NCBI GenBank assembly: GCA_016784145.1 | Contig: JADHVF010000001.1 | Coordinates: forward strand, 26,367-90,366 | DNA length: 64,000 bases | Direction of reading: 5' to 3' | Source of the DNA: Patescibacteria group bacterium | GTDB taxonomy: Bacteria; Patescibacteriota; Patescibacteriia; UBA2591; UBA6264 | Shown: positions 7,028 through 64,000 of the stretch, in pieces | How positions within the stretch are numbered: the first letter of the stretch is position 1 | Layout of the letters: each line of letters starts with the position of its first letter | Program-made: the position numbers and the translations under genes | The notes under the pieces: model-generated | Databases searched by the model: none | What the model was told of the DNA's origin: nothing | What the model saw: the letters and a program-made list of their open reading frames with translations, nothing else

Positions 7028-8414
7028 TTCTTTTTTTGATACTTGGCCCATTCGGCTTATCTTCTATATCAAATCCTAATTTATTAATTTGTTTTCTTAG
7101 TTTATCAGATTCTTCCCATTCTTGATTGTCTCTCATTACTTGGCGTTGAATAGCCATTTTTTTTATTTTAGCAGGAATTTTTGCCTGTTTTTTAATTTTA
7201 TCAAGCCCAAGACAGAGAACTTTATCAAAATCTAATATAGTGGCCAGTTTGTCTGCTTGTTTGTGATTACTTTTTATAATATCCCACATAATAGCAATTG
7301 CTGCTGGCGTATCTAAATCATTATTAATGGCTGTTTGAAATTTTTTCTGGTATAATTTTATTATTTTGCTTGGACGATTATATGATGATATTGTGTTATA
7401 TAGATTATTTAATGCATTTTGGCTTGATTTTAAGTTTTGCCAGGAAAAGGAAAGAGGAGACCTATATTTAGCGCTTAAACAGAGATATCTGTATGCAATT
7501 GGATTAAAATTTTTGGCAATTAGGGTTGATAGAGTTATAAATGTTTCTTTGCTTTTTGACATTTTGGCTTTATCAAGAATAAGAAATTCATTGTGTACCC
7601 AATAATTTGCTAGTGGTTTGTGGTTAATTGCTTGTGCTTGTGCAATTTCGTTTGTGTGATGAACAGGGATATGGTCAATTCCTCCAGTATGAATGTCAAA
7701 CGGTTGTTTTAAGTATTTAACTGACATGGTTGAACATTCAATGTGCCAGCCAGGCCATCCTTTTCCCCAAGGAGAATCCCATTGCATGATATGATTTTTA
7801 TTTTTAGGGGTTGATTTAAGCCAAAGAGCAAAATCGGTTGGAGTTTTTTTAGTAGGGTTTACACAAACTCTGGCTCCGTGTAAAAGATTTTCAATGTCTA
7901 TTTTAGCAATTTTTCCATAATTTTTAAGCTTGGCAGTATCAAAATAAATTCCATCAGCTGTTTCGTAGCAATAGCCATTTTTTTCAATTTTTTTAATATC
8001 TGATATCATGTCTTCAACATGTTCAGTTGCTTTTGCCCATTTACTAGGATGAGAAATATTTAATTTTGTAATATCAGATTTAAATGCATTAGTATAAAAA
8101 TTAGATATTTGTTTCATTGAATTAATATCTAGTTTTTTACCCTCCCTTTTAATGGCTGTTATTATCTTGTCTTCGCCTTCATCTTGGTCAGAAGTTAGAT
8201 GTCCAACATCAGTAATATTTATTACATGTTTTATTTTATAATCATTATATTCCAATGTTTTTTTTAGTATATCAGCAAAAATATATGCCCTTAAGTTTCC
8301 AATATGGGCATAATTATAAACAGTTGGACCACAACTATATAACCCAACCTGTTTTAGTTTAATTGGTCTAAATATTTCTTTTTTTCTTGTTAGAGTATTA
8401 TATAATTTTATCAT
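7017..8414 (-). CDS. cysS: Cysteinyl-tRNA synthetase
   Basis: Class I HIGH motif (YNYAHIGNLRAY), KMSKS motif (AKMSKSKETF), CGPTVY N-terminus and the WPGWHIECS zinc-site motif. Confidence 0.9.
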   Translation of the reverse strand: MIKLYNTLTRKKEIFRPIKLKQVGLYSCGPTVYNYAHIGNLRAYIFADILKKTLEYNDYKIKHVINITDVGHLTSDQDEGEDKIITAIKREGKKLDINSMKQISNFYTNAFKSDITKLNISHPSKWAKATEHVEDMISDIKKIEKNGYCYETADGIYFDTAKLKNYGKIAKIDIENLLHGARVCVNPTKKTPTDFALWLKSTPKNKNHIMQWDSPWGKGWPGWHIECSTMSVKYLKQPFDIHTGGIDHIPVHHTNEIAQAQAINHKPLANYWVHNEFLILDKAKMSKSKETFITLSTLIAKNFNPIAYRYLCLSAKYRSPLSFSWQNLKSSQNALNNLYNTISSYNRPSKIIKLYQKKFQTAINNDLDTPAAIAIMWDIIKSNHKQADKLATILDFDKVLCLGLDKIKKQAKIPAKIKKMAIQRQVMRDNQEWEESDKLRKQINKLGFDIEDKPNGPSIKKRTIN

Positions 8415-11070: not shown

Positions 11071-11301
11071 ATGTCTAATAACAAAAATTTATCAAAAGAC
11101 TTTATTATAATAGAAGGAGAAGTTGAAGAGTTATTACCTTCAGCCACTTTTAAGATAAGGCTTGATAATGATAAAACTATTCTAGCTCACTTGTCAGGGA
11201 AAATGAGAATACATAGAATAAGAATTTCTCCAGGTGACAAAGTAAAGCTCGAAGTAAGTCCTTATGATACATCTAAAGGAAGGATAGTTTATAGGTTTTA
11301 A
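11071..11301 (+). CDS. infA: Translation initiation factor IF-1
   Basis: S1-like fold sequence [54 protein letters not shown]. Confidence 0.9.
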
Positions 11302-12885: not shown

Positions 12886-13779
12886 ATGGAGAAAAATTTT
12901 TTAGCAAAGAAAATTAAATATACAGAAGATTCAACCAATAAAAATAAAGGATTAATAGAGATAGAGCCATGTTATCCGGGTTATGGAATAACCTGGGGGA
13001 ATGCGATTAGAAGAGTTTTGTTATCATCTCTTGAGGGCTCGGCTGTTACTTGCATAAAAATAAAAGGAACAAAGCATGAATTTTCTGTTATTGATAATAT
13101 AAAAGAAGATGTAATGGAGATTATCTTGAATTTAAAATTATTAAGATTTAAAATTTTAAAAAATCAAGATGAGCCAATCAAATTAACATTATCAGTCAAA
13201 GGAGAAAAAAAAGTTTTAGGAAAGGACATTAATGAATCTTTAAGTGCAGAAGTAGTTAATAAGGATTTAGTGATTGCAAATTTAACAGATAAGCAAGCAA
13301 AATTAGATATAGATATTTGGGTTGAAAAAGGATATGGGTGGGTATCATCAGAAGACAAATCAAGGCAAGGGCTTGATGTTGGTGTGATTGTGGTTGATTC
13401 CATTTTTAGCCCTATTTTAAATGTTGGGTTAAATATAGATGATGTTCGTGTTGGGAAAAGAACAGATTTTGACAAAATTAGTTTACGAATAGAAACAGAT
13501 GGCATTATTAGTCCGATTGATGCTTTTCTTAAGGCATCAAAATTATTATCATCTCAATTTGATTTTTTTATTAATTTGACTAATTCAGAGGACGAGAAGC
13601 CTAAAAAGGTAGTTAAAAAAATTGCTAAGAAAGTCCCTGTTAAGAAAAAAGTTGTTAAAAAAGCAGTTAAGAAAGTCCCTGTTAAGAAAAAAGTTGTTAA
13701 AAAAGCAGTTAAGAAAGTCCCTGTTAAGAAAAAAGTTGTTAAAAAAGCAGTTAAGAAGAAAACAATCAAGAAAAAATAA
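12886..13779 (+). CDS. rpoA: DNA-directed RNA polymerase alpha subunit with N-terminal domain only and a lysine-rich repeat tail
   Basis: The N-terminal domain is recognisable (LIEIEPCYPGYGITWGNAIRRVLLSSLEGSAVTCIKIKG). After about residue 228 the sequence becomes KKVVKKIAKKVPVKKKVVKKAVKK repeated, with no alpha-CTD-like sequence. Total 297 aa. Confidence 0.8.
   Translation: MEKNFLAKKIKYTEDSTNKNKGLIEIEPCYPGYGITWGNAIRRVLLSSLEGSAVTCIKIKGTKHEFSVIDNIKEDVMEIILNLKLLRFKILKNQDEPIKLTLSVKGEKKVLGKDINESLSAEVVNKDLVIANLTDKQAKLDIDIWVEKGYGWVSSEDKSRQGLDVGVIVVDSIFSPILNVGLNIDDVRVGKRTDFDKISLRIETDGIISPIDAFLKASKLLSSQFDFFINLTNSEDEKPKKVVKKIAKKVPVKKKVVKKAVKKVPVKKKVVKKAVKKVPVKKKVVKKAVKKKTIKKK
13627..13752. repeat. Three perfect 42-bp tandem copies (aagaaagtccctgttaagaaaaaagttgttaaaaaagcagtt) encoding KKVPVKKKVVKKAV inside rpoA
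   Basis: Copies at 13627-13668, 13669-13710 and 13711-13752 are identical on direct reading. Confidence 0.9.
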
Positions 13780-14155: not shown

Positions 14156-14518
14156 ATGTCAAAAATAAAAATAGATAGAAAAATTCAAAAATTAGACGCC
14201 CGGGGAGAGATTTTAGGAAGATTTGCTAGTCAGATAGCTCAATTGCTTATGGGTAAAGGGAAAGAGAGTTATGTTCCAAATGTTGATGTTGGGGATATTG
14301 TTATTGTTAAAAACATGGATAAGATAAAAGTTACTGGCAATAAATTAAAACAAAAAAAATATTATAGACATAGTGGATATACTGGTAATCTGAAAATAAA
14401 AAAAATGGAAGAAATACTAGAAGAATCTCCTGAAAAATTGTTGGAGTTTGCTGTTTTTAACATGTTGCCTAAAAATAAATTAAGAAAACCAAGAATGAAA
14501 AGATTGCGGTTTGAATAA
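14156..14518 (+). CDS. rplM: 50S ribosomal protein L13
   Basis: ARGEILGRFASQIAQLLMGKGKESYVPNVDVGDIVIV matches the L13 N-terminal region. Confidence 0.85.
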   Translation: MSKIKIDRKIQKLDARGEILGRFASQIAQLLMGKGKESYVPNVDVGDIVIVKNMDKIKVTGNKLKQKKYYRHSGYTGNLKIKKMEEILEESPEKLLEFAVFNMLPKNKLRKPRMKRLRFE

Positions 14519-14545: not shown

Positions 14546-14576
14546 ATTTAGGGGTTTAACCCCTAAATTTTTTTTA
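14546..14576 (+). terminator. Rho-independent terminator after rplM
   Basis: A 9-bp stem (atttagggg / cccctaaat) with a 5-nt loop, followed by a T9 run. Confidence 0.75.
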
Positions 14577-14612: not shown

Positions 14613-15116
14613 ATGTTAGAGATAAAAAAATATAATAATTCTTGCTTAAGGGTTAAATGCAAAAAAGTTGAACAGGTTACAGAACAAGTAGAAGTATTTA
14701 CAGAGAAGATGTTAAAAACAATGCATTTAAATGATGGTATTGGGTTATCTGCTCCACAAGTAGGGGATAATAGGAGAATTATTGTTATTGATATAAACCC
14801 GATTATAGGAAAAAAAAATAAAGGGTTGTTTTCTTTGATAAATCCTGAGATAATAAAAACAAGCGAAAAATATATTAAAATAAATGAAGGTTGTTTAAGT
14901 TTGCCAGGGGTAAATTTAAAGATTAAAAGACATAAAACAATCAAAGTAAAGGCATACTCAGTAAAACATAAAAAAGAAATTATTATACAAGCAAGCGGGT
15001 TGCTTTCAGCTGTTCTACAGCACGAAATTGATCACCTGGATGGAGTTTTGATTATTGATAGGGTGGGTTTTTTTGCAAAAAGAAAAGCATTAAAAAGAAT
15101 AGATAGTAATTATTGA
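14613..15116 (+). CDS. def: Peptide deformylase
   Basis: GIGLSAPQVG, EGCLS and HEIDHLDG are the three deformylase motifs. Confidence 0.85.
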   Translation: MLEIKKYNNSCLRVKCKKVEQVTEQVEVFTEKMLKTMHLNDGIGLSAPQVGDNRRIIVIDINPIIGKKNKGLFSLINPEIIKTSEKYIKINEGCLSLPGVNLKIKRHKTIKVKAYSVKHKKEIIIQASGLLSAVLQHEIDHLDGVLIIDRVGFFAKRKALKRIDSNY

Positions 15117-15236
15117 TTACTAATTATTGATTATTGATTACTGATTATTGATTACTAATTATTGATTACTGATTATTGATTACTAATTATTGATTACTAA
15201 TTATTGATTATTGATTACTAATTATTGATTACTAAC
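15106..15236. repeat. About 9 tandem copies of a 14-15-nt AT-rich unit (TAATTATTGATTAC[TA/TG]) starting inside the def 3' end
   Basis: Direct reading shows the units. The same family recurs at 15340-15410 and, inverted, at 38655-38790. Confidence 0.7.
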
Positions 15237-15259
15237 ACATGGGAGTGAGGCCCGATTAA

Positions 15260-15334
15260 GCGGGAGTAGTTCAGTGGTAGAATGTCTGCTTCCCAAGCAG
15301 AAGATCGCGGGTTCGATCCCCGTCTCCCGCTCCA
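15260..15334 (+). tRNA. tRNA-Gly (anticodon CCC), with genomically encoded CCA
   Basis: Cloverleaf folds manually. The acceptor pairs gcgggag with ctcccgc, the anticodon loop is ttCCCaa and the T-loop is ttcgatc. The 3' end is tcca. Confidence 0.85.
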
Positions 15335-15339
15335 GCAAG

Positions 15340-15410
15340 ATAATGATTAGTAATTATTAATTACTAATTATTAATTATTGATTACTAATTATTGATTATT
15401 CGTCACTAAT
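15340..15410. repeat. Degenerate copies of the TAATTATTGATTAC repeat between the two tRNAs
   Basis: taatgattagtaattattaattactaattattaattattgattactaattattgattatt. Confidence 0.5.
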
Positions 15411-15452
15411 ATACAGGGGCCAGACCCCTTTAAGCGGGGATTAACCCTTTAG

Positions 15453-37296: not shown

Positions 37297-38589
37297 ATGT
37301 TTTTAAGTATCATAGAAAATTTTTTAGCAATACTTGCTAAAAAAACAATTAAAAAATATAAACCAGTAATTATTGGAATTACTGGCAGTGTTGGCAAGTC
37401 CAGCACAAAAGAAGCTGTTTATACTATTTTAAGCAATCATATTTTTTGTAGAAAAAATATTAAAAATTATAACAATGAAATAGGCCTACCATTAACTATT
37501 ATTGGATATGATTCGCCCGGGAAAAATGTTTTTGGATGGTTAAAAATATTTTTATTATCTTCCTTTAATCTTTTTTTTACAAAAAAGGATTACCCAAAAG
37601 TGTTAATACTTGAAATGGCGGCTGACAGGATTGGAGATATTGCTTATTTAAGAGATATTGCTCTTCCTAGTAGGGGAATAATAACAGCTATCAGCCCAGC
37701 TCATAGTGAATTTTTAGGAGGGCTTGATAATATTGCTAGAGAAAAACAAGCCATTATTAAAAAATTATCAAGTAATGATTGGGCAATTTTAAATGCTGAT
37801 GATGAAAGAATTATTCCAATGAAACAGATTACTAGGGCAAAAATAATAACTTTTGGCAATTCAATTGATGCGGATGTTAGAGTTATTTATTCATCAATGG
37901 AACAGGAAATAAAAGACAACCAGGTTAAAATAAAAGGAATAAAAATTCAGGTTAAATATAAAGATGATATTATTTCATTGTTTTTGCCCGGGATGGTTTC
38001 TTTATCAAGTATTTATTCTGTGTTAGCAGCTATTTCGATTGGAATAACATTTAATATTAAGACTAAAGACATGGTTAATTCGTTTAAGAGGTATAAACCA
38101 TTAAAAGGAAGAATGAATCCGCTTAAAGGCATAAACAAGACATTAATAATTGATGATACTTATAATTCTTCTCCTAGAGCAGCTATGTCTGCTTTAAATA
38201 CATTTGCCAAGATAAATACATCTTCTCAAGCTAAAAAATGGGTTATTATGGGAGACATGAAAGAACTTGGAGTATTGTCTGAAAAATCTCATTACGAAGT
38301 TGGACAGCTGGTGGCAGGAATGAATTTTGATTATTTAATTACAGTTGGAGAAGAATCTAGAGCATTAGCACAAGGAGCTGAAGAATCAGGTATGAATGAT
38401 AATAATATATTTAGCTTTCATGATTATCGCAAGGTTATTGATTTTTTAAAGCAAAGATTGAAAACAGGAGATATTATTTTAATAAAGGGCTCTCAGGCGT
38501 CAAGAATGGAGCAGATTGTTAAGGAAATAATAATGGATTCAGGCAAGGCAAAAGATTTACTAGTAAGGCAAAATCCTACTTGGTTATAA
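37297..38589 (+). CDS. murF: UDP-N-acetylmuramoyl-tripeptide--D-alanyl-D-alanine ligase (MurF-type Mur ligase)
   Basis: ATP P-loop GITGSVGKSSTKEAV and MurF-like DDTYNSSPRAAMSAL (DDxYNANP). 430 aa. Confidence 0.65.
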   Translation: MFLSIIENFLAILAKKTIKKYKPVIIGITGSVGKSSTKEAVYTILSNHIFCRKNIKNYNNEIGLPLTIIGYDSPGKNVFGWLKIFLLSSFNLFFTKKDYPKVLILEMAADRIGDIAYLRDIALPSRGIITAISPAHSEFLGGLDNIAREKQAIIKKLSSNDWAILNADDERIIPMKQITRAKIITFGNSIDADVRVIYSSMEQEIKDNQVKIKGIKIQVKYKDDIISLFLPGMVSLSSIYSVLAAISIGITFNIKTKDMVNSFKRYKPLKGRMNPLKGINKTLIIDDTYNSSPRAAMSALNTFAKINTSSQAKKWVIMGDMKELGVLSEKSHYEVGQLVAGMNFDYLITVGEESRALAQGAEESGMNDNNIFSFHDYRKVIDFLKQRLKTGDIILIKGSQASRMEQIVKEIIMDSGKAKDLLVRQNPTWL

Positions 38590-38596
38590 TGTTTAT

Positions 38597-38910
38597 CTTG
38601 AGCACGAATCTTCCTAAGAATCACTTAGAGGCCTTGCCCCTAAGTAGAATAGAAATTAATAATCAGTAATCAATAATCAATAATCAACAATCTCAATTAG
38701 AATCACTTAGGGGCCTTGCCCCTAAGTAGAATAGAAATTAATAATCAGTAATCAATAATCAGTAATCAATAATCAATAATCAATAATCTCAATTAGAATC
38801 ACTTAGGGGCCTTGCCCCTAAGTAAATATTGAGCACGAATCTTCCTAAGAATCACTTAGGGGCCTTGCCCCTAAGTAGAATAAGCAGAGTAAGTAGAGTA
38901 AGTAGATTGT
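38597..38910. repeat. Composite repeat region built from a GC-rich hairpin unit, an AT-rich spacer family and a short tandem repeat
   Basis: Four copies of gaatcacttag[ag]ggccttgcccctaagtagaat (a 9-bp stem cttaggggc/gcccctaag with loop ctt). They alternate with AATAATCAGTAATCAATAATCA-type spacers. A 54-bp terminal direct repeat (ttgagcacgaatcttcctaagaatcacttagNggccttgcccctaagtagaata) sits at 38597-38650 and 38829-38882. An (agtaagtag)x3 tandem repeat follows at 38883-38909. Confidence 0.85.
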
Positions 38911-38926
38911 TTTCATGTAGATGGGA

Positions 38927-56868: not shown

Positions 56869-57023
56869 TAAATTATTAAGAAAGCAGGGTAGGGAACTGA
56901 CCCAATGATCCTGCTAGCAACCCTTAAAATAATTTTTTAAGAAGGTGCTAATTTCAGCCCTAAAATAGGGGAAGATAAAGGTCTATTATTTGTTTATCTC
57001 TTTCCTCTAGGAAAGAGCTTTTT
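56869..57023 (+). promoter_or_regulatory. SAM-I (S-box) riboswitch with terminator/antiterminator expression platform, leader of metK
   Basis: The core aligns with B. subtilis yitJ. UUAUUAAGAAAGCAG matches the P1/J1-2 segment. AGGGAACUGACCC...GCAACC matches P2. AAGGUGCUAAUUUCAGCC matches P3. GAAGAUAAAG matches the 3' strand of P1. The terminator is an 8-bp stem (ctctttcc / ggaaagag, loop tcta, then cttttt) at 56998-57023. The antiterminator is agataaa (56973-56979) paired with tttatct (56992-56998). Confidence 0.8.
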
Positions 57024-57036
57024 AAATTAAAAACAT

Positions 57037-58191
57037 ATGAAAAAATATTTAACATCAGAGTCTGTAACAGAAGGACATCCAGATAAATTAGCAGATCAAA
57101 TATCAGATGCTATTTTGGATGTTTATCTGAGAAAAGATTTTAAGTCACGAGTTGCTTGCGAAACATTAATAACAAAAGATAATATTATTGTGGCTGGCGA
57201 AATTACTTCTAGTGCACAAGTAGATATTGAACAAATCGTTAAAAAAGTTGTTAATAATGTTGGCTATAATAATCCTGATTATGGTTTTGATATTAATAAT
57301 TGTGAGATTAGGGTATTTATTCAAAAGCAATCTCCAGATATTTCTCAGGGAGTTAATGCAATTAAATTAACAGCCATTGGGGCAGGTGATCAAGGATTAA
57401 TGTATGGCTATGCAACTAACGAAACAGATGAATACATGCCCCTGCCAATTGTTTTAGCGCATAAACTTACCAAACAATTAATGCTTATTAGAAAGAGTAA
57501 AAAATTGGCTTATTTAAGACCTGATGGAAAAAGTCAGGTAACAGTAGAATACAAGAATAATAAACCAAGCAAAATAAATAATATTGTCGTGGCAGCACAG
57601 CATAATCCTAAGATTGACATAAATCAATTAAGGGCAGATATTATTAAAAATGTCATTCAACCAGTTATTCCTCAAAAAATGTTTACTTCTAATATTAAAT
57701 ATTTTATTAATACCACGGGCCGTTTTGTATTTGGTGGTCCAGCAGCAGACACTGGTTTAACAGGACGAAAAATTATTATTGATACATATGGAGGAGCAGG
57801 TAGACATGGTGGGGGATGTTTTTCCGGAAAAGATCCAAGCAAGGTTGATAGAAGTGCTAGCTATGGAGCGCGTTGGGTGGCTAAAAACATAGTAGCCGCG
57901 GGGTTGGCAGATAAAATTGAAATACAGTTGGCCTATTCTATTGGTAAAGCTCAACCATTATCAATTAACATAGATACTTTTAATACTGCCAAGCTAGCAG
58001 ATGAAAAAATTATTAAAATAATAAACAAAGTATTTGATTTAAGACCAGGTATGTTAATTAAAGAACTTGATTTATTAAGGCCAATTTATCAGCCAACGGC
58101 TAAATACGGACATTTTGGCAGGGATGATTTGGATTTGCCATGGGAAAAGTTAAACAAGCTAAATTCAATTAATTCCTTATTAAGTAGATGA
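57037..58191 (+). CDS. metK: S-adenosylmethionine synthetase
   Basis: [34 protein letters not shown] and [17 protein letters not shown] motifs. Confidence 0.9.
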
Positions 58192-58200
58192 AATAAAAAG

Positions 58201-58230
58201 AAAAGCCCTGTTTTTTAACAGGGCTTTTTG
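58201..58230. terminator. Bidirectional Rho-independent terminator hairpin (copy 1 of an identical 30-nt element)
   Basis: A 12-bp stem (aaaagccctgtt / aacagggctttt) with loop tttt, flanked by an A-run and a T-run. Confidence 0.8.
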
Positions 58231-58242
58231 ATGAGAGATTTA

Positions 58243-58623
58243 TTAGCAAAGAATCACCTTATCAATCCTTTTAATATCTTGATCAGGAATTTTGTGTAGG
58301 TTTTTTATTTCCTTCCAAATACAGACCTGGACATGCTTGTTAGTGGTAATATTATAGTGGTTATCTTTCATTGCTAGAACTTTTTCTGGTACATTTTTAA
58401 GTGCTTCAGAAATTAATAATAGTTCTTTCTTATTCAGGTCTTCAAAGATACCATCTTCTGTTATTAAAAGGATGCACTTTAGGGCTAGATTATTATCTGG
58501 GTGTCTTGAAAAATAAGTGATTATTTTTTTCATAAATCTCTTTTTTTCATTGATTAACTCTATTAGCCCTTTAATTTTTAGGGCCATTTCTAGAGAGTGA
58601 ATCCCTGGAGTTTCCATAATCAT
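58243..58623 (-). CDS. Hypothetical protein (cassette gene 1)
   Basis: 126 aa with no recognisable motifs. It runs divergently from the next gene. Confidence 0.4.
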   Translation of the reverse strand: MIMETPGIHSLEMALKIKGLIELINEKKRFMKKIITYFSRHPDNNLALKCILLITEDGIFEDLNKKELLLISEALKNVPEKVLAMKDNHYNITTNKHVQVCIWKEIKNLHKIPDQDIKRIDKVILC

Positions 58624-58726
58624 CTCCTTTTTTATTTTGATGTACTATGCATTAAGATATCATTTTTTAGTGTTTTTGTCAAGATATTACAAAGTCCTTG
58701 CTTTTTTTAGTATTTTTGCTATTATT

Positions 58727-58996
58727 ATGAATATGAAGAAAATATTTGAAAATTTTGACAGAGAAAGTATTCCTGAAAAATTAACAGACAAAGAGGCAAT
58801 GGAGATTGTTAATAATATTCATGACAATAGATTGACTCTAGACAAAAATCATTCAGAATATTTTAATATTTTAATTAATGACAAGACAAATAGAAGCGCA
58901 AAAATTCTCAAAAGAAAATTTGTTTTACTAGAAAATAAAGATATAGTAAAAATAGAGGACTATTTAAGACAAGTATTAAGTGAAATTGATAAATAA
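58727..58996 (+). CDS. Hypothetical protein (cassette gene 2; start moved to internal ATG MNMKK)
   Basis: 89 aa and Lys/Asp-rich. The upstream part of the ORF-track ORF (58637) would leave a 13-bp divergent gap and is hydrophobic nonsense-like. Confidence 0.35.
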   Translation: MNMKKIFENFDRESIPEKLTDKEAMEIVNNIHDNRLTLDKNHSEYFNILINDKTNRSAKILKRKFVLLENKDIVKIEDYLRQVLSEIDK

Positions 58997-59066
58997 TTCT
59001 TTGTGAAAGAGAGGCCATGACAATCAATTTATTGAGACAAGGCCTATTAGCAAGATGATTAAAGAA

Positions 59067-59096
59067 AAAAGCCCTGTTTTTTAACAGGGCTTTTTG
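59067..59096. terminator. Bidirectional terminator hairpin, identical copy 2 (aaaagccctgttttttaacagggctttttg)
   Basis: 30/30 identity with 58201-58230 on direct reading. Confidence 0.8.
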
Positions 59097-59214: not shown

Positions 59215-61425
59215 TTATTTAATTAATGGTTTATATCTTTTCATTAGCAAGGCGTTAGAAATAACGCTAACAGAAGAAAAAGCCATGGCTCCAGCTGCAA
59301 TACTAGGGGATAGCAGTGATTGAGTCATAGAGTAAAAAGCTCCAGCAGCAACTGGAATACTAATTGTATTATAAAAAAATGCCCAAAAAAGATTTTGTTT
59401 TATTTTTTTAAGGGTATATTTACTTAAATCAATGGCTGTTACAACATCTCGCAAATCGTCTTTAATTAATACTATTTCTCCTGTTTCCACGGCAATGTCA
59501 CTGCCAGATCCAAGTGCAATACCAATGTCAGCCTGGGCTAAAGCAGGAGCATCATTAATACCATCCCCGACCATGCACACCTTGTATCCTTGTTTTTGTA
59601 GTTTGGCTATTTCAGCTGCTTTATCTGAAGGCAGGACATCTGCTAAAACTTTATCCATGCCAAGCTGTTTAGCAATTGCTTGCCCAACCATAATATTATC
59701 TCCTGTAATAATGCCTGTTTTTTTGTTTAATTTATGAAGTTTAGCAATTGCTAATTGAGAATATTCTTTTAATGTATCGGCAATAGCGATAATTCCATGG
59801 ATTTTTTTATCAACACTTAATATTACACAGGTTTTTCCGCTTGCTTCTAAGTTTTGTAGTTTTTTTTCAATCAAATCAATATTAATTTGATTTTCTTTTA
59901 TTAGAGCTGGTTTACCCAATAATATTGTTTGATTATTTATATCTGCCTTTATTCCTTTTCCTAAAATTGCTTGAAAGTTTTTAGCTTCAAGTAAATTTAT
60001 TTGCTTCTCTTTAGCTTTGTTAATGATTGCTTGTGCTAAAGGATGTTCTGAATACTTTTCAATTGAAGCTGCTAATTGTAGTATGGTTTGTTCATTTGTG
60101 TTTTGGGTTATTTTAATTATATCAGTGACAGTTGGTTCTCCTTTTGTTAATGTGCCTGTTTTGTCAAAAATTATAAAATCAACATTTTTGGCTTTTTCTA
60201 GTGCCTGACTGCTTTTAATTAAAATGCCATATTTGGCTGCTAATCCAGTTCCAACCATTATGGCGGTTGGAGTGGCTAACCCTAAAGCGCAGGGGCAGGC
60301 AATGATAAGAACAGCCACAAAAGCTGTTAAGGCAAAAGCAAATGATTTACCTAATAATAACCAGGTTGTTAACGCTATGATGGCTATAAAAATAACAGCT
60401 GGCACAAAATAAAGAGCAGTTTTATCAGCCAAAAGTTGAATTGGCGGTTTAGACCCCATGGCTTTCTCTACGGTTTCAATAATTTGAGATAACATAGTAT
60501 CTTTTCCAATTTTAGTTGCTTTAAATTTTAAAAAACCTGTTTTGTTGATGGTTCCTCCAATAACTTGCTCATTAATATTTTTTTCAACTGGAATACTTTC
60601 TCCGGTAATCATTTTTTCATCAACGCTTGAATAGCCATCAATAATAATTCCATCAACTGGAATTTTTGCTCCTGGCTTAATTAAAATAATATCATTTACT
60701 TTTACTTCTGATACGTCTATTTTTACTTCTTGATTGTCTTTTAAAATTATTGCCTGCTTTGGCTGAAGCCCAATTAATTTTTTAATTGCTTGGCTAGTTT
60801 TTCCCTTTGTAATGGCTTCAAGATATTTTCCTAAATTAATAAAAATTAAAATAAAGACAGCGCTTTCATAATATAAATCTTGTATGATGGTTTTATAGCC
60901 AAATATCAATGATAAAGAAATTGCTAAACTATAAACATAAGCAGATAGGGTTCCAATAAAAACCAATGAATCCATATTTGGTTTGAGTTGTAATAAATTT
61001 TTAATTCCATTTGTCCATATTTTAATAGAAAATCCAATAACAACAGAGGCAAAAATAAATTCGATTATATGAGTATTTGTTTCTATAAAATAGGGGATTG
61101 GCAGACCAATCATTTTCCCCATAGACATATAAACAACAGGTAGCCCAAATATAAAGCTAAAAATAAGGCGTTTTTTTAGAGAGGAGGAATAATCATTGGT
61201 GTTTACTTCCTCTTTTGACTGAATTTTATATCCTAGGTTATTAATAATTTTAGTTATTTGTTTGAGGTTGATTTTATTGATATCAAAATCTAAATAAGCC
61301 TTTTCATTGGCAAAATTTACATTAATTGAATTTACTCCCTCTGTTTTTTTTAGTTTATTTTCAATAATTGTTGAACAAGAAGCGCAATGCATGCCTTTTA
61401 TTTTTAATATTTCTTTTTTTTCCAT
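59215..61425 (-). CDS. copA: Copper-translocating P1B-type ATPase
   Basis: The N-terminal HMA domain carries GMHCASC. The TM segments carry CPC (ACPCALGLATP) and MxxSS (MAFSSVSV). The phosphorylation site is DKTGTLT, with GDGINDAPAL downstream. 736 aa. Confidence 0.85.
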   Translation of the reverse strand: MEKKEILKIKGMHCASCSTIIENKLKKTEGVNSINVNFANEKAYLDFDINKINLKQITKIINNLGYKIQSKEEVNTNDYSSSLKKRLIFSFIFGLPVVYMSMGKMIGLPIPYFIETNTHIIEFIFASVVIGFSIKIWTNGIKNLLQLKPNMDSLVFIGTLSAYVYSLAISLSLIFGYKTIIQDLYYESAVFILIFINLGKYLEAITKGKTSQAIKKLIGLQPKQAIILKDNQEVKIDVSEVKVNDIILIKPGAKIPVDGIIIDGYSSVDEKMITGESIPVEKNINEQVIGGTINKTGFLKFKATKIGKDTMLSQIIETVEKAMGSKPPIQLLADKTALYFVPAVIFIAIIALTTWLLLGKSFAFALTAFVAVLIIACPCALGLATPTAIMVGTGLAAKYGILIKSSQALEKAKNVDFIIFDKTGTLTKGEPTVTDIIKITQNTNEQTILQLAASIEKYSEHPLAQAIINKAKEKQINLLEAKNFQAILGKGIKADINNQTILLGKPALIKENQINIDLIEKKLQNLEASGKTCVILSVDKKIHGIIAIADTLKEYSQLAIAKLHKLNKKTGIITGDNIMVGQAIAKQLGMDKVLADVLPSDKAAEIAKLQKQGYKVCMVGDGINDAPALAQADIGIALGSGSDIAVETGEIVLIKDDLRDVVTAIDLSKYTLKKIKQNLFWAFFYNTISIPVAAGAFYSMTQSLLSPSIAAGAMAFSSVSVISNALLMKRYKPLIK

Positions 61426-61442: not shown

Positions 61443-62939
61443 TTAATATGCCCTAATTATAGAACCACAACCACAACTTGGGATGCCACAATCTCCGCCA
61501 CATGAGCCACTGCTTCCAGTAGTGCCTCCACAACTTCCTTCAGGTAAATTAAGTGATTCTTTGTAGATAGTTTCTCTTGACGGTTGTTTGTTTTCATCAG
61601 TGACAATAAATTTGCCCCAAACCATTTGCATCCAGCAAGAAAACTTAATTTCACCAACTTTGGTTGGTGTAAATTCAATAATATTTTTACCTTGTTTTAA
61701 TTTTTTTCTTATATTATATCCATCATGCAGAATGATTTCATCAGTGCATCTGGTCATTTCTTTTGCAGTAATAATCCATCTAACAGGAACGCCTTTTTTA
61801 ATATATATAACATTTGGATCATATCCTCTGTATTTAATTGCCATATTAACTGTTTGATATTCCTTAACATCGCCAGTTACTATAAACTCTGTTTGGGCAC
61901 TTGATTCTCGTGGCACAAATTCCCTAAAGCCATATCCAAAATTAGTCAAACCTCTGTTAATCATAAATAATCCAAGTATTATCACTACAATTCCTGATAT
62001 TTTCATTACTTGTTTAATTTTATCTTTACTAATTAAAGAAATAAAATTACCAAAACCAAACATTAATGGCACTGTTCCTAATGCATATATTCCCATTGAA
62101 AGAGCTCCTCTGACAATGCTCCCAGATGCTAGGGCATATATTTGCATTGCTTGCAATGGTCCACAAGGCATAAGGCCATTAAGTAAACCAATGATAAAAG
62201 GTCCCTTTGGTTTTCTAGTATGTCTTTGTGAGTAAAGAAATTTTCCCATAAAAGATGGCATTTTAAGTTTGATTTTTTCAAACCAGGACATACTGGTAAT
62301 AAAAGATAATCCCATTAAAATCATAAAAATACCAGCTATTAAGATAACACTGCCTGTAAAAGTAGGGTTGATGGCAAAAAATGATCCCAATCCACCTAAA
62401 ATTCCGCCAACCATTGTATAAGATATTGTTCTTCCAAGATTGTATTGAATATGGGGCCAAGAAGCTTTTGTTTGTTTATCTCCCTTGGCATGATGTCTGG
62501 CCGTATAAGCAACTACTAATCCTCCACACATACCAACACAATGAAAGCTAACCAAGATGCCAATTAAAAAAATAAGCCAATAACTTATTTTGGCTTCATT
62601 TAATTTAGCTAGTAATTCAAGTGCACCAGAATTTTTAATTAAAACATAAACAATGATTAGTAAAATAAATAATCCAGAAGCAATTAACATCTTCTTCTTT
62701 TTATTTACTTGTGCTTTTGTTTTTTTAATCTTTTCAACCTTATATTTTAATTTTTCAATTTTAGCAAAAATTTTTCGTTGAGATATTTGGTTGTCATCAA
62801 ATTCTATTTCAGTTTTTCCAGTAACATGGTCAACTGTAATATCTTTAACTCCTTTTAAAATATCAACTTCTGTTTCAATCAATGTCTTGCAACTTTGACA
62901 ATGAGTTCCTTTGATTTTGATTTTGATTTTTTTAAGCAT
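61443..62939 (-). CDS. HMA-domain membrane protein with DsbD/CcdA-like Cys-Pro TM motifs and a C-terminal cupredoxin-like/Cys-rich domain
   Basis: N-terminal HMA (GTHCQSCKT). The TM region carries HCVGMCGG and GLMPCGPL. The C-terminal soluble domain has H...FSCWMQM, a candidate Cu-ligand set, and ends in a cysteine-rich tail CGGTTGSSGSCGGDCGIPSCGCGS. Confidence 0.45.
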   Translation of the reverse strand: MLKKIKIKIKGTHCQSCKTLIETEVDILKGVKDITVDHVTGKTEIEFDDNQISQRKIFAKIEKLKYKVEKIKKTKAQVNKKKKMLIASGLFILLIIVYVLIKNSGALELLAKLNEAKISYWLIFLIGILVSFHCVGMCGGLVVAYTARHHAKGDKQTKASWPHIQYNLGRTISYTMVGGILGGLGSFFAINPTFTGSVILIAGIFMILMGLSFITSMSWFEKIKLKMPSFMGKFLYSQRHTRKPKGPFIIGLLNGLMPCGPLQAMQIYALASGSIVRGALSMGIYALGTVPLMFGFGNFISLISKDKIKQVMKISGIVVIILGLFMINRGLTNFGYGFREFVPRESSAQTEFIVTGDVKEYQTVNMAIKYRGYDPNVIYIKKGVPVRWIITAKEMTRCTDEIILHDGYNIRKKLKQGKNIIEFTPTKVGEIKFSCWMQMVWGKFIVTDENKQPSRETIYKESLNLPEGSCGGTTGSSGSCGGDCGIPSCGCGSIIRAY

Positions 62940-63011
62940 GTTTTTTTTATTATTTTATTATTTATTATTTTATTTTTGAGAGGCTCAGCCTCTGAGGAGT
63001 TTCAAGCAAAA

Positions 63012-63281
63012 CTATTTGCAAGTGTTGTTTTTATTATTACAAGTTTTTGTTTGTTTAAATTTAATATATGAATAAATTGCCAATATCAAAAAAATTATTG
63101 ATATGATTATAAGTAATTTATTATAAGATACTAACCAGGCACTAAAAGAAGCAATTCCAAGAAAAGATAAAATAGCTGCTCCTGTTAAGGTACAACACCA
63201 CCCCAGTAGGCCGATGATGCCTAATCCGCCTGTAAGAAAAGAGATTATAGATAAAAAAATTGTTTTTAATTTATTGTTCAT
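63012..63281 (-). CDS. Small membrane protein with a vicinal Cys pair in TM1 (MerT-like feature)
   Basis: 89 aa with GLLGWCCTLTGAAIL in TM1 and a C-terminal C-x8-C (KTCNNKNNTCK). Confidence 0.35.
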   Translation of the reverse strand: MNNKLKTIFLSIISFLTGGLGIIGLLGWCCTLTGAAILSFLGIASFSAWLVSYNKLLIIISIIFLILAIYSYIKFKQTKTCNNKNNTCK

Positions 63282-63286
63282 TTTAA

Positions 63287-63412
63287 TTATTGATTTATTA
63301 AATCACACTCTCCTTTAATAATTTGACAAGATGAATTAGTATTATTAATTAAAGTTTTTCTAATAAAAATACTAGTTAAAACTATTAAAAAAACTATAAT
63401 AAATTTTTTCAT
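63287..63412 (-). CDS. Possible 41-aa exported peptide with a C-x5-C motif (not in the ORF track)
   Basis: Manual translation gives MKKFIIVFLIVLTSIFIRKTLINNTNSSCQIIKGECDLINQ. It begins with a signal-peptide-like segment and lies between two metal-related genes. No other support. Confidence 0.2.
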   Translation of the reverse strand: MKKFIIVFLIVLTSIFIRKTLINNTNSSCQIIKGECDLINQ

Positions 63413-63420
63413 ATATTTAT

Positions 63421-64000
63421 TTAAAAAAGGTTAGCAATTTTTTCGAGCTCTGATAGAGTAATTTTTATTTTTCCATTCTCGTTTTTTAAGTTTGGATTGA
63501 TTGGCGCTGGATTACAACCACCCTTTTCAGTTGCAATTTTAGCTAAAGGATATTTATTTCCACAAGCATCACAAGTCATAAAATCACCCTCTTTTTTAAA
63601 TCCTAATCTAGCATCAAAACAAACTTGGCAGGCATTGGCAGCTGCCCTATAAACACCATTTTTGTCTTTAACAACAAAATAATAAACGACTTTTCCATTA
63701 GGAAGTTCTGTATTGTAATAATGAAATCCATCAACATCAATATCACTTGCATTTAAGATTACTTTATTGCTTAATAACGAAAGATTTTGTCCATTTTCTC
63801 CATTAAACTTAATATTAGGCAATTTCATAGATGCTTTAAAAGGGATTGTGTTTTGTGAAAAAGTTGGTTGATTTGTTGAACATTTTAATAATTCTTTTAA
63901 TTCAGGTAGTTTTTTGTATCCACTATATAGTTTTTCATTTATTACAAAAGTCGGAACTGTCCTGAATTGATGTCGAACTTGTCCAGTATTAGCATTGATT
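63421..64000 (-). CDS. Thioredoxin-fold domain fused in frame to a CxxC...CxxC (DUF2318-like) Cys-rich domain; N-terminus beyond window end
   Basis: The - strand frame stays open from 63828 to the window end. It encodes ...GQVRHQFRTVPTFVINEKLYSGYKKLPELKELL, a glutaredoxin/thioredoxin cis-Pro region. Downstream are ACQVCFDARLG and MTCDACGNKYP. Confidence 0.5.
   Translation of the reverse strand, partial: INANTGQVRHQFRTVPTFVINEKLYSGYKKLPELKELLKCSTNQPTFSQNTIPFKASMKLPNIKFNGENGQNLSLLSNKVILNASDIDVDGFHYYNTELPNGKVVYYFVVKDKNGVYRAAANACQVCFDARLGFKKEGDFMTCDACGNKYPLAKIATEKGGCNPAPINPNLKNENGKIKITLSELEKIANLF

Follow-up and report, generated by a model that had tools for sequence, protein, structure and literature searches.

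A predicted bidirectional intrinsic terminator, probably copied locally to three successive transcription-unit borders downstream of metK in a Patescibacteria genome

Introduction

The DNA analysed here is a stretch of 64,000 nt from a Patescibacteria group bacterium (contig JADHVF010000001.1, positions 26,367 to 90,366), referred to below as the window. Downstream of its metK gene, a 30-nt hairpin, AAAAGCCCTGTTTTTTAACAGGGCTTTTTG, is repeated around two small divergent genes, and the original prediction saw in this arrangement a cassette that had been inserted with duplication of its target or exchanged by recombination between hairpins. The described systems closest to the hairpin are the ordinary bidirectional Rho-independent terminators. 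Like them, it combines an A-tract, a GC-containing stem, a short loop and a T-tract, reaches −17 to −19 kcal/mol on both strands and is placed a few to about 100 nt past the stops of genes that point towards it. Each ordinary terminator, however, has a sequence of its own, as do the others in the window, whereas in this locus one 30-nt sequence is used three times in 6.5 kb.

Repeated palindromes of terminator type have been described in other bacteria. The TRIT motif, restricted to Mycobacterium, is a sequence-conserved palindromic terminator with 147 copies per genome (RNIE paper, PMC3152330), and it overlaps coding-sequence ends, around position −8 (PMC3152330). The present hairpin is likewise repeated, palindromic and hence bidirectional, terminator-like and tied to gene termini, but its sequence is unrelated and its three copies in 73 kb are all intergenic. 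It also resembles the families of stem-loop repeats listed by Cozzuto et al. (PMC2267715), but from these and from TRIT it is set apart by its tiny copy number and its local clustering. Repetitive extragenic palindromes (REPs) and bacterial interspersed mosaic elements (BIMEs) resemble it in that they are short palindromes, lie between genes at 3' ends and are able to affect termination or mRNA stability. REPs are imperfect palindromes with a conserved 5' GT[AG]G-type head; the hairpin has no such head and is a perfect palindrome between A and T runs. The other REP/BIME features, an often alternating orientation and linkage to REP-associated tyrosine transposases (RAYTs), were likewise not seen in and around the locus. 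REPs usually number more than 100 copies per genome (PMC2817692), compared with three in 73 kb here, clustered in 6.5 kb.

In dif modules and integron cassettes, too, small modules with genes of unknown function, metal genes or resistance genes are bounded by palindromic sites of about 28 bp. Integron cassettes carry an imperfect attC site of 57–141 nt (R''/L''-L'/R', with extrahelical bases), are mostly promoterless and co-oriented, and lie beside intI. In the locus studied here the hairpin is perfect and 30 nt long, no integrase lies within 20 kb, and the bounded genes are a divergent pair sharing a promoter region and a copper operon with its own csoR and an operator-like palindrome. The pdif sites of Acinetobacter are 28-bp XerC/XerD sites of 11-6-11 geometry that flank plasmid modules in opposite orientation (PMC6449649).

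The comparison presented below makes it likely that the hairpin is a bidirectional intrinsic terminator which has been copied locally and now stands at three successive transcription-unit borders.

Results

Three copies of one hairpin

An exact-match search agreed with the original prediction that the 30-mer is present at 58201–58230 and, with 30/30 identity, at 59067–59096, the two copies being separated by 836 bp. Including their flanks, the repeat formed by these copies is 37 nt long with 95% identity. The window holds no further match with up to three mismatches (0 in 100 shuffles), so that the statement that the hairpin does not occur elsewhere in the window is literally true. It is nevertheless misleading, since a third copy, matching at 29/30 positions, lies about 700 nt past the window end, at window-equivalent 64703–64732 (contig L001, 8694–8723). 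This copy shares 31 consecutive identical bases with the second (59065–59095, 31/31). The three copies are designated H1, H2 and H3 in the order of their positions.

Contigs of the same organism were found via the exact MetK sequence and the exact sequence of an 89-aa membrane protein. They overlap the window with 100% identity and lengthen it to 73,281 nt, from a genome whose largest contig is 237 kb; positions beyond 64000 are given as window equivalents. Exactly three copies were counted in these 73,281 nt at up to three mismatches, and a search in an independent assembly agreed. The 58 kb of the window before H1 and the 8.5 kb beyond H3 were free of copies, which confines all three to 6.5 kb and leaves none in the other 67 kb. 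The loop reads TTTT on the + strand in each copy, and the orientation is therefore direct. At least six European Nucleotide Archive assemblies and the metagenome-assembled genome (MAG) at NCBI have the same order with 0 differences, and more than 20 contigs from several studies have the same arrangement, again with zero differences. As several independent assemblies that read through the repeats give the same order, an assembly artefact was rejected.

The genes are arranged such that metK, preceded by an S-adenosylmethionine (SAM) riboswitch, runs on the + strand into H1, which is met from the other side by a 124-aa gene on the − strand (ORF124). Next to this, an 89-aa gene (ORF89) runs on the + strand into H2, and so does, on the − strand, a copper operon in which copA is followed, reading against the direction of transcription, by genes for an HMA/DsbD/cupredoxin protein, an 89-aa and a 41-aa protein, an FtrD-like protein and CsoR. 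The operon promoter, H3 and a 112-aa gene transcribed towards H3 on the − strand come last. The three copies thus bound two modules, the 836-bp ORF124/ORF89 pair and the 5.6-kb csoR–copA copper operon. Because the third copy bounds the copper operon, the hairpin delimits two adjacent intervals, and the two genes described as a 'cassette' make up just one of them.

Fold and position

H1 consists of AAAAGCCCTGTT-TTTT-AACAGGGCTTTT plus TG. A 12-bp stem had been predicted, and H1 and H2 indeed fold as a stem of 12–13 bp with a 4-nt loop and five G:C pairs, between an A-tract and a T-tract; a consensus scan scored both as terminators on both strands. H1 folds at −18.7 kcal/mol on the + strand and −17.2 kcal/mol on the − strand, H2 at −18.9 and −18.0 kcal/mol (z = −4.9 to −7.0); none of 200 shuffles was as stable. 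A U-rich tract follows directly 3' of the stem, T5 on the + strand and, on the − strand, T4CT5 in H1, T6CT3 in H2 and T8 in H3. According to a sliding-window fold and a perfect-hairpin scan, the three copies rank among the most stable intergenic hairpins of the 73 kb. Rfam has no family for the hairpin and returned sub-threshold terminator-like matches only.

Each copy, all of them intergenic, lies directly 3' of the gene or genes transcribed into it. H1, situated between the convergent metK and ORF124, is 9 nt past the metK stop and 12 nt past the ORF124 stop. H2 is 70 nt past the stop of ORF89 and 118 nt past that of copA, and not just before the copA stop as had been supposed; it is the sole strong hairpin available to terminate either gene. 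H3 lies 16 nt past the stop of the 112-aa gene, upstream of the csoR promoter and 185 nt upstream of csoR. By its shape and position, the hairpin is predicted to be a bidirectional Rho-independent terminator.

Copies of one another rather than convergent terminators

The other canonical terminators of the A-tract/stem/T-tract type in the 73 kb, at 2569, 19048, 51175, 68269 and 69053, each have their own stem sequence. Against these unique stems, the identity of three copies over 29–31 nt within 6.5 kb excludes convergence; the three are homologous duplicates. In 14 of 15 comparisons the 250-nt flanks aligned no better than shuffled sequences did. The remaining one, a borderline cross-strand comparison of the left flank of H3 with the reverse complement of the right flank of H2, gave a score of 32, which 0.5% of shuffles reached. 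The flanks being otherwise unrelated, copying seems to have involved the hairpin and its tails alone.

Elsewhere, the search proposed in the original prediction, which yielded the third copy in the same organism, retrieved only unrelated singletons. The hairpin core with any loop gave 106 matches in the GTDB representatives (185,579 species, one genome each), all of them singletons in unrelated phyla save for two contigs of one MAG. About this many matches would be expected from some 2e8 independent terminators, each drawing an arm of 10 nt. A background of singletons close to the chance level points to a generic good terminator and not to a travelling element. The exact 29-mer had two unrelated matches in JGI metagenomes, on contigs of 38% and 43% GC, and none in IMG/VR. 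None of the matches in GTDB or JGI has gene context in common with the metK–copA locus. A widespread element was rejected on these grounds. The stem half-sites never occur singly, and the idea of a DNA-uptake sequence was rejected on that account.

One further terminator, AAAAAAGCCCATTTTATATGGGCTTTTTT at window-equivalent 69053–69081 (reverse strand of contig L124), has the outer arms AAAAGCCC/GGGCTTTT of the triplicated hairpin, with another loop and another inner stem. It may represent a diverged relative or simply a generic form.

Contigs assembled with k=31 in Logan (L002, L005, L006 and L127) stop inside H2 or H3, and L127 runs exactly from H3 to H2. These breaks are explained by the 31-nt exact match common to both hairpins. 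Caution is therefore advisable with k=31 assemblies, which repeats of 30–31 nt break exactly at these hairpins.

The two small genes

The two divergent open reading frames between H1 and H2 were found as predicted, at 58243–58623 on the − strand (126 aa) and 58727–58996 on the + strand (89 aa). Translation of the first probably begins at METPG, which has AAGGAG 7 nt upstream; this start gives 124 aa (58243–58617), the 126-aa version using the alternative start at 58623. ORF89 would have 87 aa if begun at 58733. The 87-aa and 89-aa calls are not strain variants, as the DNA is identical and only the choice of start differs.

Both genes had been called orphans, which holds for ORF124. Among 5.8 billion clustered proteins it matched only itself, and phmmer, run exhaustively against 1.84 billion representatives, returned nothing but ORF124 and two marginal low-complexity matches. 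In NCBI it is the hypothetical protein ISS06_00445 of 'Patescibacteria group bacterium'. Codon periodicity (GC1 0.42, GC2 0.21, purine at position 1 0.68), the Shine-Dalgarno sequence and a stop-free run of a length seen in about 0.1% of shuffles led us to judge it coding-like, and it is a genuine orphan with a predicted helical product.

ORF89, on the other hand, is a small conserved protein with two homologues (P0003 and P0004) of 64–66% identity that share with it a long invariant DNRLTLDKNHSEYFNI block. These are encoded in Patescibacteria of 25% GC, directly 3' of, and overlapping, a YbaK/tRNA_edit gene. The constant overlap suggests that the homologue is an uncharacterised small partner protein of the trans-editing deacylase. 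ORF89 of the window stands alone whereas its homologues follow the YbaK-like gene, and hence relocation must have taken place at some time. No similar hairpin was found downstream of the homologues, and a hairpin travelling with the ORF89 family was therefore rejected. The overlapping-stop arrangement with the YbaK/tRNA_edit gene is located at 7426–8264 of contig L116, 147–985 of L120 and 3426–4264 of L121.

Neither protein had a match in Pfam, PADLOC, PHROGs, NCBIfam or the PDB sequences, and tblastn against plasmids and phages gave nothing significant. The structure prediction and remote-homology check that had been recommended produced no family match, and the AlphaFold2 models are unreliable given their pLDDT of 47 (ORF124) and 42 (ORF89). 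The guess that the genes form a toxin-antitoxin pair found no backing: such pairs are co-transcribed and match known families, whereas these genes are divergent and match no toxin-antitoxin or defence family. There is likewise no sign of an autonomous mobile element in them.

Signs of insertion and mobility

No recombinase or transposase was present among the genes annotated at 53–73 kb or among 27 further open reading frames of the window, which are housekeeping genes (nusG, rplA, def, rpoA, pheS, murB, mraZ/mraW, ftsI, murF), and a Y1 transposase (RAYT) was absent from both sets. No inverted repeats besides the hairpin itself were found at the module ends. The third-position GC content (GC3) of the copper operon, 0.16–0.23, is genome-typical, on which basis foreign composition was rejected; ORF124 is mildly atypical at 0.30, compared with about 0.20 for its neighbours. 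At 90% clustering every protein of the locus stands alone in its cluster, and hence no other organism has a near-identical one.

The comparison of the metK–copA interval with an empty site in related genomes is limited by distance. The nearest MetK homologues are 67–68% identical, a value that leaves out the MetK-like protein P0006 (597 aa, 763 bits, higher than the 68% homologues; fusion-like, on a contig of 58% GC), which was excluded as unrelated because of its duplicated SAM-synthetase domains and different neighbours. The 67–68% relatives show neither synteny nor a similar hairpin; metK is followed in them by tRNA-His and then by unrelated variable genes. As the genes past tRNA-His are lineage-specific, the 3' flank of metK is variable in those relatives too. 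The tRNA-His lies at 11177–11251 of contig L128 and 4482–4553 of L130, and is followed by AIPR and type I restriction-modification genes in one relative and by giant surface proteins in the other.

Discussion

Favoured explanation

If the hairpin acts as its structure predicts, RNA polymerase coming from either side would transcribe the stable hairpin and the U-run and then release. The three hairpins would in this way insulate the riboswitch-controlled metK, the small divergent pair and the CsoR-regulated copper operon from each other. We suppose that the copies arose locally by recombination with the hairpin as substrate, along either of two routes which fit equally well. Self-contained modules may have been inserted, by a Campbell-type or illegitimate event, at an existing terminator that was regenerated on both sides, or one good terminator may have been copied or gene-converted into nearby intergenic regions. 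Recency, gene conversion or selection on pairing could have kept the copies identical. Local duplication of intergenic hairpins does occur in this genome, to judge from a four-copy array of a second hairpin, ACTTAGGGGCCTTGCCCCTAAGT. In function the repeated hairpin would then be an ordinary terminator. Within the 73 kb covered, it does not appear as a mobile, dispersed repeat.

Several points weigh against local copying of a terminator. Only 73 kb were scanned, which leaves room for a larger dispersed family of TRIT or REP type. No + strand transcript reaches H3 that would need stopping there, and H2 is fairly distant from both stops. The copying mechanism is inferred, neither an empty site nor a variant strain nor a recombination junction having been seen.

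Alternative explanations

The most serious alternative, which we regard as possible though clearly the lesser candidate, stays close to the original prediction: the ORF124/ORF89 module would have entered a metK terminator already in place, as would the copper operon on a wider view, either with duplication of a 30-bp target or by exchange of modules through homologous recombination. Two findings speak for it, namely that the copies are homologous and that the intervals are self-contained transcription units, exactly bracketed by direct repeats of the same orientation. Consistent with insertion are also the orphan status of ORF124 together with its slightly raised GC3, and the occurrence of ORF89 homologues only in another conserved context, which makes the window copy a relocated one. 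RecA-dependent exchange needs roughly 30–31 bp of identity at minimum, about the length shared here. On the other side, the hairpin bounds the copper operon as well, and the locus has no transposase, integrase or terminal inverted repeats. A duplication of 30 bp is atypical of transposases, whose target duplications are usually far shorter, and neither ORF124 nor ORF89 matches a transposase family. The copper operon is genome-typical in GC3, no CopA of at least 90% identity exists in any other organism, the arrangement is invariant in the more than 20 contigs, and with the nearest MetK at 68% there is no empty site for comparison. Cassette insertion is neither proved nor refuted, and the case for regarding it as something peculiar to the two genes is weakened. 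Nothing shows mobility of the cassette; its insertion is possible. Chance convergence of independent terminators, or an artefact of assembly at repeats, deserves hardly any credence. Although unrelated bacteria have evolved the core on many separate occasions, the identity over 29–31 nt takes in loop and tails, for which 0 matches are expected, and multiple independent assemblies read through the repeats in the same order; both ideas are effectively refuted.

Two alternatives would assign the hairpin to a larger or different class of elements. It is unlikely that the three copies belong to a larger family, present throughout the genome, of REP-like elements or of palindromic terminators with conserved sequence, in the manner of Mycobacterium TRIT or enterobacterial REP. 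Such a family would spread in trans (e.g. by RAYT-type enzymes) or be bound by a dedicated factor, and the cluster would be a sampling effect. The palindromic and bidirectional character and the location at gene ends recall TRIT (PMC3152330), a second locally repeated hairpin family exists at 38.6–38.9 kb, and the terminator at 69053 has the same outer arms. Yet neither the opening 58 kb of the window nor the 8.5 kb past H3 holds a copy. Moreover, half-sites never stand alone, no Y1 transposase is among the genes annotated at 53–73 kb or the 27 further reading frames, the palindrome is perfect and lacks the REP-type head, and other Patescibacteria hold only unrelated singletons. Still more improbable is a core site for a tyrosine recombinase (lox/FRT/dif type), with inverted arms of 11–13 bp round a short asymmetric spacer, at which modules would excise and integrate as circles, termination being secondary. 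An 11-6-11 parse of the hairpin reproduces the geometry of 28-bp dif sites (PMC6449649), but any short-loop hairpin can be parsed in this manner. The spacer has the same polarity (TTTT, + strand) in all three copies, both modules are complete units, and contigs of related Patescibacteria carry Xer-like integrase genes. However, the sites of dif modules are oppositely oriented (C/D, D/C), whereas the perfect, chromosomal hairpins described here are all direct; their arms are fully symmetric, compared by eye, they resemble no known dif site, and neither a recombinase gene within 20 kb nor an excised or empty form was observed.

Implications

To our knowledge, bacteria of the candidate phyla radiation (CPR) lack most classical mobile elements. 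One speculative idea, to which we attach little probability, is that the hairpin has a second role as a hot spot or site of recombination, RecA-dependent on its 30–31 bp or used by a host Xer-type system, and that a streamlined Patescibacteria chromosome gains terminator-insulated modules stepwise downstream of metK without a dedicated integrase. If it were true that the hairpin is the crossover for module gain, for instance of a copper-resistance operon, this would be a very simple form of accessory-gene acquisition in CPR bacteria. Short of that, the finding is a small curiosity, a good terminator repeated at neighbouring unit borders of a reduced genome that has few strong intrinsic terminators, and its main use lies in the operon annotation of this MAG.

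Neighbouring genes and further repeats

The metK leader contains a SAM (S-box) riboswitch on the + strand at 56870–56981 (Rfam RF00162, 61.7 bits against a gathering threshold of 44.4, E = 8.7e-13), followed by its terminator-like hairpin at 56998–57017, directly upstream of metK. The metK gene itself (57037–58191, + strand; MBL7053657.1) encodes a methionine adenosyltransferase of 384 aa with the N, M and C domains of Pfam S-AdoMet_synt. ORF124 and ORF89 diverge from a promoter region at 58618–58732. It contains, on the − strand at 58682–58654, the match TTGACA-17-TATCTT with an extended TG, and a + strand promoter for ORF89 is inferred only.

The last gene of the copper operon, all of whose genes lie on the − strand, is that for the copA-type P1B ATPase (736 aa, 59215–61425; Pfam HMA, E1-E2_ATPase and Hydrolase), which is transcribed into H2. 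The rest of the operon within the window occupies 61443–64000, as given by gene calls with Pfam. It comprises the gene for the HMA-DsbD-cupredoxin protein (61443–62939), that for the 89-aa membrane protein (63012–63281), the 41-aa open reading frame and the FtrD-like gene, which runs past the window end. The csoR gene follows at window-equivalent 64245–64517. In its promoter region, at window-equivalent 64543–64569 (L001 8534–8560), a perfect 12-bp operator-like palindrome, AATACCTATACCCATGGTATAGGTATT, probably serves as the copper operon's CsoR operator.

The four copies of ACTTAGGGGCCTTGCCCCTAAGT lie within 340 nt at 38569–38920, the first with one mismatch, between convergent murF-like and Elp3-like radical-SAM/GNAT genes. 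No U-tract follows their stems, and they are interleaved with microsatellite runs of the 7-mers AATCAAT/AATCAGT. A related hairpin of the form TTAGGGG...CCCCTAA is found at 14546–14568, after a 120-aa open reading frame at 14156–14518. At 15076–15425, tRNA-Gly(ccc) is bordered on both sides by long runs of 7-nt tandem repeats (ATTGATT/ACTAATT type), which also stand ahead of tRNA-Thr(cgt); this 7-mer family recurs in reverse orientation in the hairpin array at 38.6 kb. Tandem repeats are also present in coding sequence, as 21-nt (7-aa) units at 766–2363 in a 731-aa open reading frame (307–2502) and as lysine-rich 42-nt units at 13603–13770, at the C-terminal end of an rpoA-like open reading frame (12886–13779).

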